Shown piece after piece: positions 59,123 through 64,000 of a stretch of DNA of 64,000 nucleotides. The notes below the pieces were generated by a model. It did not search any database. It saw only the letters and a list, made by a program, of their open reading frames with translations, and had not been told where the DNA came from. This DNA comes from an uncultured Chloroflexia bacterium (GTDB lineage: Bacteria; Chloroflexota; Limnocylindria; Limnocylindrales; CSP1-4): positions 412,923 to 476,922 of the forward strand of contig CAVSEO010000005.1 of NCBI GenBank assembly GCA_963727005.1, in the 5' to 3' direction. The position numbers were made by a program, and so were the translations under genes. Position 1 is the stretch's first letter. Each line of letters starts with the position of its first letter.

Positions 59123-59602
59123 CTACGCCAGAACGAGGGCCTGCTCGTCCTCGCCCGAGGCATCGGCTCCGGTCTCTTCGGGGGAGTTGTCCGCCGATTC
59201 GTCCGTGTCGGTGACGTTGCCGTCCGCCGGACCGGCTTCGCCGGAGGCCTCGGCCTGGCTATTGAGCGACTCCGCCTCGTAGTCCCGCTTGCGGCGGCCC
59301 GAGAGCATCTCGACAGAGGTGGCCACCACCTCCGTCTTCCAGTGGCGCGCTCCGCGGTCGTCGTCCCACTGGCGGGTCTGCAGCCGGCCCTCGACGGCGA
59401 CCTGCTGGCCCTTGCCGAGGTACTGGCCACAGACCTGGGCAAGGCGGTCCCAGACCACGACGTTGTGGTACTCGGCGTGCTCCTTGCCGTTGCCCCGGAA
59501 CTCGTTGGTCGCCACCGCGAAGGTGGCCACGGATGAACCGCTGGCCAGCGATCGCAGCTCCGGATCGCGGGTCAATCGGCCGGTAAGAAGGACCTTGTTC
59601 AC
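59123..59602 (-). CDS. ssb: Single-stranded DNA-binding protein lacking the canonical C-terminal acidic/PF tip
   Basis: NKVLLTGRLTRDPELR and GQQVAVEGRLQTRQW; protein ends EQALVLA. Confidence 0.92.
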   Translation of the reverse strand: MNKVLLTGRLTRDPELRSLASGSSVATFAVATNEFRGNGKEHAEYHNVVVWDRLAQVCGQYLGKGQQVAVEGRLQTRQWDDDRGARHWKTEVVATSVEMLSGRRKRDYEAESLNSQAEASGEAGPADGNVTDTDESADNSPEETGADASGEDEQALVLA

Positions 59603-59797: not shown

Positions 59798-60458
59798 ATG
59801 GAGAGCGAAGCGGGCGACAGCCCGAACGCAGGCCCGACGGTCGATCCGAGGGACCGAAGCCTCCTCGCGCTCCTGGAGATCGGGGCCGCGGCAGTTCTCA
59901 TCGGTTCGTTCTTCGTGCCGTGGCTGGCGCCTTCAGAACCCAGATCCTGGACGGGGATCTCGTGGGGCGGCTCGGCCGGCGCGCTGACAACGCCGGACCT
60001 TCTGATTCCCTTCGCGACGCTGCTGGCGATCGTGGTCACCTCGCCGGCCTGGCGTTTCCGGCGCGTGGGGCAAAGATCGCGATCCTGGTCGCGTTCGCGG
60101 CGGCGTCCTACGGAGCGATCCTGCAATTCCAGGACGTTCTATCCGGTGAGCTACTACAACTACCTCGTGCCGCCGACCGCAGGGGTCGGACTCTGGCTCT
60201 TCACCGGGACCGCCGCTGCGGGTGTCGTGCTGGCCGTGGTGGATCTCGTGCGGGGCGGCAATTCGACGCTTCGTGTGGCGCGCCATCAGAAGACCGTCCG
60301 TGAAGCGATACGGCCCCATGGTGGCCTACGTCGTGATGCTGCTGATCACCTTGCCGGTGGCCCTATTCCCGATGGACCCGTCGTGGTGGATCTACGTCTG
60401 GTTGGCTGCGCTGCTGATGCTGCCGCTGTGGGTGGTTCGAGCCAGAAGGGCAACGTGA
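59798..60458 (+). CDS. Orphan multi-pass membrane protein, frameshifted
   Basis: SD GGAGGAGG; about 6 hydrophobic segments recoverable across frames; no family recognised. Confidence 0.6.
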
Positions 60459-60620
60459 CCTGGTCCGAAATCCGAGACGGTAGCAGCGCTGGCCGCTAGA
60501 CCCGTTTGCGGCCGAGCGGTGCCCGGGTCGGCAGCGAGGGCGTGCCTTCGGCGACGCTCCGCGGGGTCCGCGCTATGCTGGCCCGGGCCGGGTCACGATC
60601 GTGACGGCCGCGTCTCGGAG

Positions 60621-61673
60621 GTGGTCGAAGTAGCTGCACGGCGGGAAGTCACGACCTGGATCGGCCGCGCGATAGCGTTGGGCGCAGTGCTGGCGCTGGG
60701 CGCGGCTTGCTCCTCGGGCGCCGCCACACCGACGCCGGCGAGCCTCGGCGGAAGCAGCCCGGTCGCATCGGTAGCCGCGCCGGCGACGGCAATGCCGGCC
60801 GGATCATGCGCTTGCTCGACGCCGGCTTCGTCCGGGACGGTCGTGGCCTGGGGCGACGACAGCTCCGGCCAGGCGACCGTGCCGGCCGGCCTCACCGGGG
60901 TCGTGGCCGTTGCGGCGGGAGACGAGTTCAGCCTGGCATTGAAGTCCGATGGGACGGTTGTCGGCTGGGGAGCGAACGACGTCGGCGAGACCAGCATCCC
61001 GGCCGCCGCCACGGCCATCAAGGAGATCTCGGCCGGCAGCGCCTTCTCGCTTGCCCTGAAGCAAGACGGAACGGTGGTCGGTTGGGGCGACAACACGGAC
61101 GGCCAGGCGACCGTCCCCGCCGGCCTCAACGGCGTCGTCCAGATTTCGGCCCGCGGCAGCCACGCCCTGGCGCTCAAATCGGACGGAACGGTCGTGGCCT
61201 GGGGCTCGGACGCGAACGGCGAGATCGACGTCCCGGCCGGCCTCAAGAGCGTGATCCAGGTCTCGGCCGGGTACGACTACAGCCTGGCGCTGAAATCGGA
61301 TGGAACGGTCGTGGCCTGGGGCGACAAGACCGTGACCGACCAGCCGAGCGGCGTGACCAAGGTTCCCGCCGGTCTGGCCGGCGTCGCGAAGATCTCGGCG
61401 GGCTACTACCACAACCTCGCCCTCGAGCTGGGTGGCACGGTCGTCGCCTGGGGTACCAACGACTCGGGCCAGACCGCGGTCCCATCCGGTCTTTCCGGGG
61501 TCATGGCCGTGGCTTCCGGTGGCAACTTCAGCGTCGCCCTCAAGTCCGACGGGACGGTGGTCGCGTGGGGCGGAAACGAGTCAGGTCAGACGACCGTGCC
61601 GTCCGGTCTGTCGAACGTGAAAGCCATCGATGCCGGCGGCAGCCATGCTCTGGCGGTAGTCGGCCAACCCTGA
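60621..61673 (+). CDS. Lipoprotein with seven ~40-aa RCC1/BLIP-II repeats (start approximate)
   Basis: Lipobox LGAAC, Ser/Pro/Ala linker, then 7 repeats of the type TVVAWGxNxxGQxxVPxGLxxVxxIxAGxxHSLALKSDG. Confidence 0.88.
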   Translation: MVEVAARREVTTWIGRAIALGAVLALGAACSSGAATPTPASLGGSSPVASVAAPATAMPAGSCACSTPASSGTVVAWGDDSSGQATVPAGLTGVVAVAAGDEFSLALKSDGTVVGWGANDVGETSIPAAATAIKEISAGSAFSLALKQDGTVVGWGDNTDGQATVPAGLNGVVQISARGSHALALKSDGTVVAWGSDANGEIDVPAGLKSVIQVSAGYDYSLALKSDGTVVAWGDKTVTDQPSGVTKVPAGLAGVAKISAGYYHNLALELGGTVVAWGTNDSGQTAVPSGLSGVMAVASGGNFSVALKSDGTVVAWGGNESGQTTVPSGLSNVKAIDAGGSHALAVVGQP

Positions 61674-61704
61674 GCGCTGTAGCAACGAGTCTGACGGAGG
61701 ACCA

Positions 61705-62504
61705 ATGACTGACATCCGAGCCCGACTGGCCAATCGTGCGCCGCTGGATATGGCCGAGCCTGGACGAGCGGGCGCTCATGGGCTGCATCGACCATTCGAT
61801 TCTCCGCCCGGAACTGACCAGGGCCGAAGTCGAGGCGGCGATCGATGTCGCCATCGAATGGCAGACGGCGACTATCTGCTGCCGTCCCGCCGATCTCGAG
61901 CTTGTCGTGAAGAGACTGCGCGGCACCGCCGTCGGTCCGACGACCGTCATCGGGTTTCCGCACGGTGCCCACACTTCTCAGATCAAGGAGAAGGAAGCAC
62001 TCCTGGCCGTCGATCAGGGTGCGGTCGAACTGGATGTCGTGGTCAACATCGGGGCCCTCCGGGCCGGCGATCTCAGGATTCGTCCGCGACGAATTGGCGG
62101 GCATCTGCTATGCCGTTGCCCCGACTCCGGTCAAGGTGATCCTGGAGACGGCTTACCTGACTCCCGAACAGGTCGAGGCGGGTTGCAGGACCGTGGTCGA
62201 GGCCCGAGGCTCGTTCGTGAAGAACGGCACGGGCTACTCACCTCGCGGCGCCGAGCCGAACGAGATCGCTCTCATGCGCCGGGTCGTGGGCGATCGAATC
62301 GGCGTCAAGGCCGCCGGAGGCGTTCGAACACTCGACGCGATGCTGGGAATGCTGGCCGCGGGAGCCTGCCGCGTAGGCGCGACCGCTACGCCCGCGATCG
62401 GTGCCGAGTGGCGCGCTCGCGGTCCCGAGGCCCTCGCCGCGGCCATCGTCGCGCGACCGGCCGGGGCCCCCACTGCCGGGCCCGCGGCGAGCGAGGACGA
62501 GTAG
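61705..62504 (+). CDS. deoC: Deoxyribose-phosphate aldolase, frameshifted
   Basis: VIGFPHG, ELDVVVNIG, VKVILET, FVKNGTG and GVKAAGGVRT motifs. Confidence 0.88.
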
Positions 62505-62557
62505 GGCGGAGCCGGGCGGGCGCCTGGCGGGTCGGTCCTGGTTCGGGCTCTGCCGCC

Positions 62558-62760
62558 TGCTATACTGCCGTGGTCCCGGGGTCGGAGGACCCCCGGGTCC
62601 CGCCCCAGATATCGCCAAGGAGTGCACGTTGCCCCAGGAAGGCGTGCAGTTCGCCCCGTGAGACGAACCACCACCTTCGCTCCCCCCGGAGCCGCCGCAG
62701 CTCCAACGGAGGGGCAGTCTACCCAGGTCCCCGGCCGGCCGGCCGAGGGCTTTTTAGTTT
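62558..62760 (+). promoter_or_regulatory. purA promoter (extended -10 TGC-TATACT) and attenuator-like leader with intrinsic terminator
   Basis: TATACT at 62561-66; terminator stem 62727-62750 followed by TTTTTAGTTT, about 55 nt before the purA start. Confidence 0.6.
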
Positions 62761-62812
62761 CCCGGAGGTCCATGCGCCGGTTCGGCCTGGCATACGAGCG
62801 AGGGGAAGTACG

Positions 62813-64000
62813 TTGACCGCGACCGTGATCGTCGGCCTGCAGTGGGGCGACGAAGGCAAGGGCAAGACCACCGACTTCCTGGCCGAGGACGTCTCCGCCG
62901 TCGTTCGGTACCAGGGCGGCGACAACGCCGGCCACACGATCATGCTGGGCCAGGAGGTCTTCAAGCTCCACCTCGTCCCATCGGGCGTGCTCTACCCGCA
63001 CATCACCCCGATCATCGGCAACGGCGTCGTCGTCAATCCGGCCACCCTGATCGCCGAGCTGGAGATGCTGGCTTCGCGCGGCATCGAGGTGGACCGCGTT
63101 CGCGTGAGCAAGCACGCTCACGTGATCATGCCCTACCACATCGCCCTGGACGGGGCCATGGAGGCCCGCCTGGCCAACGCCGCCGTGGGGACGACGAGAC
63201 GAGGAATCGGCCCGGCCTACGCCGACCGCGCCTGGCGAATCGGAATCCGGATGGAGGATCTTCTGGATGGGCCGGCGCTGCGTGGCAAGCTCGCGCGGAT
63301 CCTGCCCGAGAAGAACGCCACGCTCCAGCGCCAGCATCGCGTCGACGGCTTCGACCTCGACGAGCTGGTCGCCCAGGCGGTCGAATGGGGCCGCCGGCTG
63401 GCACCCCATCTGGCCGACACGACCCAGCTCGTGCAGGAACGCCTCGCCCGCGGCGATCATCTGCTGTTCGAAGGCGCGCAGGGCGCGCTGCTCGATCTCG
63501 ACCACGGCAGCTATCCCTTCGTGACCTCCTCGAACCCGATCGCGGGCGGAGCATGCACGGGCGGAGGGCTCGGGCCGCTCCAGGTCGACGAGGTCATCGG
63601 GGTCATGAAGGCCTACGCCACGCGCGTGGGGGCGGGGCCGTTCCCGACCGAGCTGACGGACGCGATCGGCGAGGGGATCACCGATCGGGGTCGCGAGTTC
63701 GGCACTACCACGGGCCGCCGCCGCCGGGTCGGCTGGTTCGACGCCGTGCCGCTCCGCTATGCGGTGGCCGTGAACAGCGTCAGCTCGATCATGCTCAACA
63801 AGATCGACATTCTGTCCGGGCTGGACGAGGTCCTCATCTGCATGGCCTACGAAGTCGACGGCAAGCGGGTCGAGTGGTGGCCTTCGGACGCCGACATCCT
63901 TGCCCGGGCGACTCCGATATACGAGCGTTTCCCCGGCTGGACCGAACCGTTGCACGACTGCCGGTCGATGAGCGACCTGCCGGAGAACGCCCGGCGCTAC
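62813..64000 (+). CDS. purA: Adenylosuccinate synthetase (partial, runs off the window)
   Basis: TTG start; GLQWGDEGKGK, RYQGGDNAGHT, LHLVPSG, GIGPAY, FEGAQG, TRVGAGPFPTE and GTTTGRRRRVGWFD motifs. Confidence 0.97.
   Translation, partial: MTATVIVGLQWGDEGKGKTTDFLAEDVSAVVRYQGGDNAGHTIMLGQEVFKLHLVPSGVLYPHITPIIGNGVVVNPATLIAELEMLASRGIEVDRVRVSKHAHVIMPYHIALDGAMEARLANAAVGTTRRGIGPAYADRAWRIGIRMEDLLDGPALRGKLARILPEKNATLQRQHRVDGFDLDELVAQAVEWGRRLAPHLADTTQLVQERLARGDHLLFEGAQGALLDLDHGSYPFVTSSNPIAGGACTGGGLGPLQVDEVIGVMKAYATRVGAGPFPTELTDAIGEGITDRGREFGTTTGRRRRVGWFDAVPLRYAVAVNSVSSIMLNKIDILSGLDEVLICMAYEVDGKRVEWWPSDADILARATPIYERFPGWTEPLHDCRSMSDLPENARRY

Follow-up and report, generated by a model that had tools for sequence, protein, structure and literature searches.

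The intrinsic terminator of the E. coli pyrBI operon lies inside a 135-bp gene for a leader peptide and is suppressed only by tight coupling of transcription and translation (PMC4824070, PMC5021804, PMC3641672). In pyrBI (pyrL), as in the related rph-pyrE attenuator, this coupling is sensitive to UTP; a ribosome that keeps pace with the polymerase blocks the terminator hairpin, with no dedicated antiterminator helix. The known control of purine operons is through repressors (PurR) or riboswitches (purine, ZTP, PRPP), and we know of no ribosome-coupled attenuator of the pyrBI type that has been described for purine synthesis. Here we analyze a leader that precedes purA, the gene of adenylosuccinate synthase, in a 64,000-nt stretch of contig CAVSEO010000005.1 from an uncultured Chloroflexota bacterium (this whole stretch is called the window below). 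On balance, the sequences make it probable that the purA leader acts as a ribosome-dependent transcription attenuator, in which the ribosome would block the terminator hairpin as it does in pyrBI, and also as a translational relay, serving a purine-biosynthesis operon.

The leader lies in the 308-nt spacer between the end of deoC (62504) and the TTG start codon of purA (62813). The contig is rich in G+C (70%) and belongs to a metagenome-assembled genome (MAG), whose relatives come from peat, fen and soil. NCBIfam matches in the next 16 kb of the contig give a run of 11 genes on one strand, in the order purA-purD-purB-purC-purS-purQ-purL-purF-purM-purN-purH. With purA as the first of them, the target of the leader is de novo purine synthesis together with the AMP branch. 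An initial annotation, made from the letters of the window, had proposed an attenuator- or riboswitch-like regulator of AMP synthesis here; all strings that it named are found at their positions, and a conserved leader does precede purA, but its target is the 11-gene purine operon and not AMP alone. The elements of the locus, numbered from the first letter of the window, are as follows.

62558..62566, + strand: extended -10 element TG-C-TATACT, 252 nt before the purA TTG at 62813
62572..62600, + strand: 5'-proximal hairpin, GGUCCCGGGGUC / GACCCCCGGGUCC
62617..62622, + strand: Shine-Dalgarno (SD) sequence AAGGAG
62629..62661, + strand: uORF-A, an upstream open reading frame (ORF), UUG CCC CAG GAA GGC GUG CAG UUC GCC CCG UGA, translated as MPQEGVQFAP*
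62638-53 / 62664-78, + strand: helix P1, GAAGG-C-GUG-CA-GUUCG / CGAAC-CAC-CA-CCUUC, with the 10-nt loop CCCCGUGAGA
62658..62816, + strand: ORF-B, 52 codons, the 3' part of ORF 62622..62816, with the stop codon TGA at 62814-16
62688-92 / 62700-04, + strand: helix P2, GGAGC / GCUCC, with a variable loop, G-U pairs and double changes
62707..62724, + strand: junction with helix P3, GGG 62711-13 / CCC 62722-24, loop GCAGUCUA
62725..62755, + strand: intrinsic terminator, AGGUCC-C-CGGC / GCCG-A-GGGCUU, stem 62725-62752, then U5 (62751-55)
62813..64000, + strand: purA, TTG start, first gene of the operon, continuing past the window edge

Comparison of sequences shows the promoter box, P1, P2, the terminator, the two frames with their junctions and the operon; that translation suppresses termination in the purA leader is what we infer. 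As in pyrBI, there is a short reading frame with its own predicted ribosome-binding site, an intrinsic terminator within the leader ORF (62725-62755 inside ORF-B, 62658-62816), and a nucleotide-biosynthesis operon downstream, which in this case makes purines and not pyrimidines. The geometry is also alike, with about 122 nt between the UUG and the U-tract in the purA leader and about 120-135 nt between the ORF start and the terminator in pyrBI. Unlike pyrBI, the purA leader is read in two overlapping frames via GUGA in a hairpin loop, or else from AUC, and its frame ends exactly on the start codon of the structural gene. No U-rich pause tract precedes its terminator, and the candidate sensor is instead a G/A-rich tract 3' of P2; its RNA core is far more conserved than its peptide, and its lineage, Chloroflexota, is unrelated.

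The case for translation of the leader starts with the ribosome-binding site. GGAG or GGAGG is found 4-10 nt before a start codon in 116 of 116 leaders, and among 36 species the AGG of the window's AAGGAG is invariant, with flanking bases nearly so. In the window, uORF-A begins with UUG 6 nt after AAGGAG. UUG is also the prevailing start in relatives (GUG is found in L068 and L157, AUG in L037 and L165), and codon 2 varies only at its third base; in the 80 leaders with a canonical start, uORF-A mostly has 10 codons, with a range of 8-13. Its UGA (62659-61) lies in the apical loop of P1 and overlaps a GUG (62658-60), so that stop and start share the sequence GUGA (62658-61). From this GUG, ORF-B spans the 3' arm of P1, P2, P3, the terminator hairpin and the U-tract, and its stop codon overlaps the start codon of purA (TTGA).

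Translational coupling by overlapping stop and start codons is well known, for example UGAUG at trpE-trpD. The leader uses the same device twice, with GUGA or AUGA between uORF-A and ORF-B and with UGAUG, UAGAUG or TTGA between ORF-B and purA. Unlike trpE-trpD, the coupled partners are non-conserved leader frames and not enzymes, and the first junction is placed in the apical loop of a conserved hairpin.

Frame B stays open in 104 of 105 leaders as far as positions -10 to +13 relative to the start of purA, at distances between its GUG and the gene that range from 110 to 452 nt. The first stop is at -2 in 43 leaders (UGAUG or UAAUG), at -3 in 32 (UAGAUG), at +1 in five (the overlap seen in the window), at -4 to -10 in nine, and at +13 in 15, where the TGA falls within codons 4-5 of purA; in one leader, L018, it is at +50, the loop having been mis-assigned by the pattern used. 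The third frame, which serves as a control, is interrupted early in 30 of the 105 leaders, and in just seven does it end at the purA start. Insertions and deletions within the genus are mostly multiples of three (-36, +21, +30 and +45/48 nt, and changes of 3 or 6 nt in the P2 loop), and a 1-nt offset is seen in three leaders. We also simulated the path of a ribosome that binds at the SD sequence, starts 4-10 nt 3' of it, stops, and restarts at an overlapping start codon. This path arrives at purA in 116 of 116 leaders: 80 have a canonical start and a two-step relay, 26 (genera g5, g7, part of g4, g25 and g27) have an AUC in frame B and a single long frame, six combine AUC with the relay, and four were scored via an alternative in-frame GUG.

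The P1 loop follows this logic closely. Where the ribosome has to restart, the loop reads GUGA or, in L127, L137 and L166, AUGA; loops that lack both UGA and GUG, namely GAGA (L108, L153, L160) and GGGA (L180), are found solely in leaders that start with AUC in frame B. L140 has lost GUGA and its uORF is three codons longer; a GAUGA lies 9 nt downstream, and its AUG is in frame B. In L037 and L124 a frame-B stop lies 5' of the loop, and frame B must therefore begin at the loop GUG there. The AUC-type leaders, L145-L177 (g5, g7, g25, g27) and part of g4 (L161, L174, L180), have frames without AUG, GUG or UUG. A conserved AUC is found 6-8 nt after their GGAGG, and in g5 and g7 it shares the frame of the loop GUG, exactly 30 nt 5' of it. 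AUC is a rare start codon in bacteria; this arrangement suggests that it may be used routinely for initiation in these leaders. About half of the distant leaders (e.g. L147, L106 and L112) have no recognisable SD sequence before purA, so that translation of purA there must depend on the relay.

The leader peptides are rich in Arg, Gly and Pro and differ between genera as well as between the two start types. A conserved small protein encoded by ORF-B was considered and ruled out, as the peptide is kept only where the RNA is. To judge from these comparisons, selection is for being translated and for a motif at the RNA level, not for a protein product.

At the RNA level, RNAalifold and covariation support P1 (in g5, for example, its arms read GGGCGCAUCGGCC/GGUCGAGCGACC), P2 and the terminator. 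The initial annotation had seen the GGAGC of P2 as able to pair with either of two GCTCC copies. Pairing with the downstream copy (62700-04) covaries; pairing with the upstream copy (62679-83) finds no support, because in relatives that copy becomes ACGCC while GGAGC stays. P2 may be extended by pairing of CC 62682-83 with GG 62708-09, and other genera have a long CCGCCGG/CCGGCGG hairpin in its place. A further proposed hairpin, TGCAC/GTGCA (62623-48), exists in the window and is not conserved; 18 of 36 species cannot form its pair 15-38, and the helix fares no better than shuffles. Between P2 and the terminator lies a near-invariant junction with the family consensus CGGGAGAYGUCUAYCC, in which a purine-rich G-run stands 7-10 nt 3' of P2. 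The 3-bp helix P3 is weakly supported (pair 107-116, with one compensatory A-U and two G-U). Conservation of the junction has no third-codon pattern, and the bases that never vary in it (..U A.C C) are not those at synonymous sites; being independent of codon position, the constraint acts on the RNA.

The terminator was the only leader feature caught by simple scans (one found against 0.1 expected), and its stem covaries from G-C to G-U to A-U. In many relatives only about 12-25 nt separate it from the purA start, too few to hold a separate purA promoter. For the same reason, and because the upstream gene differs among genomes, the objection that the terminator might belong to the deoC transcript only does not hold.

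Within the genus, 99.2% of cells are paired and four pairs are compensatory, a result reached in 0 of 500 shuffles. For 55 distant members the paired fraction is 88.8%, compared with 74.5% for shuffles, and is inflated by the fitting of this alignment to the structure model; double changes occur at 30 of 33 pairs (0 of 500 shuffles), and slid controls reach a paired fraction of at most 54%. The minimum free energy of the whole leader is not below that of shuffles (z = -0.5), and neither strand does better than shuffles, so that the case for structure is one of conservation and covariation, not of stability. When full leaders were aligned simply with MAFFT, column-wise covariation missed even P1, because the variable hairpins misalign; alignments based on covariance models were used instead.

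Several other pairings were examined. The initial annotation had read CGGAGGGGC (62707-15) as an antiterminator; it can form at most 4 bp (GGGG/CCCC), and comparison of relatives lends it no support. RNAduplex runs against the 5' arm of the terminator in about 85 leaders revealed no consistent partner, 4-5 bp of GGG(A)/UCCC being the most that was found. This absence of a conserved antiterminator partner fits the idea that the ribosome itself blocks the terminator hairpin. A pseudoknot between the CCC of the P1 bulge and the GGG of the junction was considered and is not claimed: both sides are almost invariant, the bulge variants UCG, UUC and CUC are uncompensated in the junction, and g25 has no bulge. 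A reading of the P1 GUGA as a GNRA tetraloop is weakened by AUGA and by the shifted GAUGA, which keep the stop/start overlap and are not GNRA.

A structured core of this kind invites another explanation, a classical metabolite-binding riboswitch, with P1, P2 and P3 as its aptamer and the terminator as its expression platform. It would bind a ligand from the purine pathway, such as guanine, hypoxanthine, adenine, a nucleotide, PRPP or ZTP, and the frames would merely bring ribosomes to purA, or the ligand would block translation of the leader. Such a reading accounts well for unpaired positions that are near-invariant over many genera (the YCC bulge, the GNRA-like P1 loop, CGGGAGA and UAYCC), for junction conservation that takes no notice of codon positions, and for a multi-helix architecture backed by covariation, with the conserved core expected of riboswitches in general; moreover, purine operons are often under riboswitch control. 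The GUCUACC of the leader resembles J2/3 of purine riboswitches, and, like the purine, ZTP and PRPP riboswitches of other phyla, the leader is a structured 5' region with a terminator before purine genes. It differs from all of these in its helix layout and in being translated throughout.

The database searches do not favor this explanation. Cmscan against Rfam 15 at E <= 10, run over positions 60000-64000 of the window, gave no match within 62505-62812, and at E <= 1 in 20 diverse family members it reported nothing on the leader, though nearby SAM riboswitches were picked up. The leader is not a member of the families of Rfam 15 (purine RF00167, ZTP, PRPP/ykkC, ppGpp, T-box, c-di-NMP, 6C and others), and the view of it as an unrecognised cis-acting leader outside Rfam, with its own promoter and terminator, is borne out. 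The conserved competition between terminator and antiterminator that a riboswitch would use was not found in about 85 leaders; the P1 loop obeys a start/stop logic and not a fixed tertiary motif; and the entire putative aptamer would lie within a frame kept open in all members, which is unusual for an aptamer. We consider a classical riboswitch unlikely. The riboswitch-like reading of the initial annotation had not taken translation into account: a leader translated through its terminator up to the purA start is better explained by a ribosome-dependent attenuator than by a plain riboswitch.

The SAM riboswitches just mentioned are of the SAM-I type (67-71 bits); three other genera have one a short way 5' of the purA leader, on the strand opposite to it (L100 1876-1988, + strand; L103 912-1027, - strand; L124 170-285, - strand).

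At the 5' end, the extended -10 element noted by the initial annotation proved to be near-invariant: TGnTATACT is found at a fixed distance in all of about 120 family leaders, with variable flanks and the minor variants TATGCT and TATCAT. A scan of the region for two-hexamer promoters gave no match, because this promoter has no -35 element. The transcript probably starts about 6-8 nt 3' of the -10 box, at about 62572-74. The hairpin that had been drawn at 62575-97 is likewise there (62572-62600), and nearly all leaders of the same genus fold a hairpin of differing sequence at this place; in other genera it is a GCGGG...CCCGC hairpin. Outside the genus of the window, the transcript start is a conserved GUCCUCGA (L100-L177, e.g. 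L113, L106, L147). A helix between GUCCUCGA and CUCGAGGA, which precedes P1, is possible in many genera; it was not confirmed and is not claimed, because g5 loses the partner and yet keeps the 5' end. Pairing of GUCCUCGA with the SD sequence GGAGG could not be confirmed either. In genus g5, a direct repeat, GGTGGTACC in two copies about 24 nt apart, lies about 50-110 nt upstream of the -10 box (L156, L158, L159, L162, L169, L170 and L177; variants GGAGGTACC and GGTCGTACC). This repeat, which may be an operator or an activator site, is absent from the window.

The DNA of the leader is present in 36 of 36 genomes of the same genus, with 78-93% identity and always before purA. Within the genus, the box CCTGCTATACT and the block that begins with CAAGGAG (62616) and ends with the U-tract (62755) are near-invariant, and their surroundings are variable. 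A covariance model, R1, built from the 36 species of this genus, has full-length matches in about 90 further genomes from more than 30 genera of the same Limnocylindria family (Chloroflexota), prevalence figures that are lower bounds; R1 overlooks true members (G068, G095). All true matches, after inspection, are single-copy and directly 5' of purA, so that the concern that the structure might not be conserved has not materialized. Weak matches in other families are ordinary terminators behind unrelated genes, except for one real member in a neighbouring family (L136). The leader was not found in 24 genomes of the sister family (1-Mb genomes), and no such leader was seen in sister families or in G081, one genus within the family. 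In the sister family, the region 5' of purA is short in L194, L196 and L197; it has a TACGAT box some 55 nt from the ATG and contains no structured or translated leader.

Two further leaders, L198 (G221, g18) and L199 (G209, g17), keep the promoter box, SD sequence, UUG, uORF, GUGA, long frame and UGAUG relay. Neither has a terminator made of a hairpin and U-tract, and L198 is also without the GUCUAYCC junction.

The mechanism that we favor can be outlined as follows. Transcription would begin about 7 nt after the conserved extended -10 box, and about 55 nt into the RNA a strong SD sequence with a weak UUG start would load ribosomes on the 10-codon uORF, the 3' two-thirds of which form the predicted 5' arm of P1. 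The ribosome would stop at the UGA in the P1 loop, restart at the overlapping GUG in frame B, and read the 3' arm of P1, P2, the G-rich junction with P3, both arms of the terminator and the U-tract. A ribosome close behind the polymerase would cover the 5' arm of the terminator, so that no hairpin would form and transcription would read through from purA to purH. On the read-through transcript, the ORF-B stop placed on the purA start (TTGA, or UGAUG or UAGAUG in relatives) would hand the ribosome over to purA, which would be translated by coupling. Were translation of the leader late or failing, the terminator would form and the operon would be off.

Our leading guess for the signal, made by analogy, is a purine-NTP (nucleoside triphosphate)-sensitive pause of the polymerase in the G/A-rich tract (GGAGGGGCAG in the window, CGGGAGA in other genera). 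This tract is a candidate sensor because 7-10 nt after P2 is the active-site position of a hairpin-stabilised pause. Low GTP or ATP would hold the polymerase, allow the ribosome to catch up, and turn the operon on. There is a partial parallel in the leader of the Salmonella mgtCBR operon, where an ORF, mgtM, brings about ATP-responsive coupling of leader transcription and translation (PMC3641672). Like the purA leader, mgtM is a short ORF in a long structured leader with an unconserved peptide and conserved helices and particular purine nucleotides, and the NTP level has been proposed to act there by polymerase pausing at an adenine tract and ribosome coupling (PMC3641672), which is the parallel that we guess at. 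Unlike the purA leader, mgtM works through alternative stem-loops and probably Rho, has no ORF crossing an intrinsic terminator and no relay to the start of a structural gene, and high ATP turns mgtC on.

P1 itself may possibly be a pause hairpin that is released by the ribosome, as in the attenuators of amino-acid operons. With the trp, his and leu attenuators the purA leader shares a leader peptide, an upstream hairpin that contains leader codons, and a terminator before the first structural gene. It departs from attenuators of the trp type in that its peptide is not conserved and contains no run of regulatory codons, that a search of about 85 leaders revealed no 2:3 antiterminator, and that its frame runs through the terminator and does not stop before it.

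A serious alternative for the signal is a metabolite or a protein bound to the conserved RNA core. We hold it possible, though only as a tentative proposal, that the core (the bulge and loop of P1, the GGGAGA...UAYCC junction and P3) is a new sensor embedded in a translated frame. It might be a pause module that senses GTP or ATP, or an aptamer whose target is a ribosome that terminates or reinitiates at the GUGA junction; either way, read-through of the terminator and translation of purA would be set jointly by a single signal, for the whole operon.

If a protein were the bound partner, the leader could be a protein-mediated attenuator, for which PyrR and TRAP are examples, with an RNA-binding regulator or a pur enzyme on the junction or the P1 loop controlling termination or leader translation. 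Strongly conserved single-stranded motifs beside the terminator and the lack of an evident antiterminator helix would agree with this, and the direct repeats 5' of the promoter in some genera hint at further protein control. The operon and its surroundings, on the other hand, hold no candidate regulator gene, and neither repeated binding triplets nor a PyrR-type loop is conserved, which makes this explanation quite improbable.

Several points weigh against the attenuator reading, beyond the circularity of the 55-member alignment. Open frames are common at 70% G+C, and about 70% of leaders are open in the control frame, too, so that the argument has to be made from frame-specific statistics. 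An AUC start is required in 26 leaders. The near-invariance of unpaired bases (the YCC bulge, GGGAGA and UAYCC) is more than a device made of a pause and a terminator needs, and points to a bound ligand or protein. Finally, since L198 and L199 have the relay and no terminator, the primary role of the relay may be translational.

In its extreme form, the last point would mean a leader without regulation, in which the relay only couples purA to an upstream SD sequence and melts structure, the hairpin and U-tract acting as an insulator that leaks, or else marking where a small leader transcript without a sensing role ends. The retention of the relay without a terminator in g17 and g18 is what one would then expect, and purA in the window does have an SD sequence of its own, GAGGGG. 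Against this, most genera keep a terminator with compensatory changes inside a frame that must be open, which would be costly without a function; the position before an 11-gene biosynthetic operon, and weak starts (UUG, AUC) behind a strong SD sequence in nearly all members, suggest a tuned device. An unregulated leader is accordingly very improbable in our view, and we return to the ribosome-dependent attenuator with relay as the preferred reading.

Literature searches turned up no description of the purA leader or of a leader-ORF attenuator for purine operons. If the sensor interpretation were true, this would be the first purine counterpart of NTP sensing of the pyrBI type, or else a riboswitch that acts on an elongating or restarting ribosome. 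The leader is a compact and testable device: a strong SD sequence is followed by a weak start, UUG or AUC; stop and start codons overlap in a hairpin loop; a terminator lies within the frame; and this frame hands over to the first enzyme gene. It would make a natural system for the study of termination-reinitiation, non-AUG initiation (AUC) and transcription-translation coupling in Chloroflexota, to our knowledge a phylum in which regulatory genetics has hardly begun. For RNA-motif discovery in genomes of high G+C content the leader is a caution, too: what looks like an orphan riboswitch can be fully translated.

Some observations concern the neighborhood of the leader. The upstream neighbor varies among genomes, and in the window it is deoC (61705-62504), which is broken into two overlapping frames (61736.. 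and 61965..62504). Similarly, purB, purQ, purF, purM and purH have only partial NCBIfam matches, inside longer mixed frames (L155, G000:C5:475700-492000). These breaks look like indel errors of a long-read MAG assembly and not like real pseudogenes, and they call for caution with single-base details in the window; the leader of the window agrees with those of its relatives despite the frame breaks nearby. Further upstream there is an ssb-like gene (single-stranded DNA-binding protein, recognized by eye from the translation; 59123-59602, - strand) with no relation to the leader. Just 5' of deoC, an RCC1-repeat protein with a signal- or lipoprotein-like N-terminus is encoded at 60519-61673 (+ strand).

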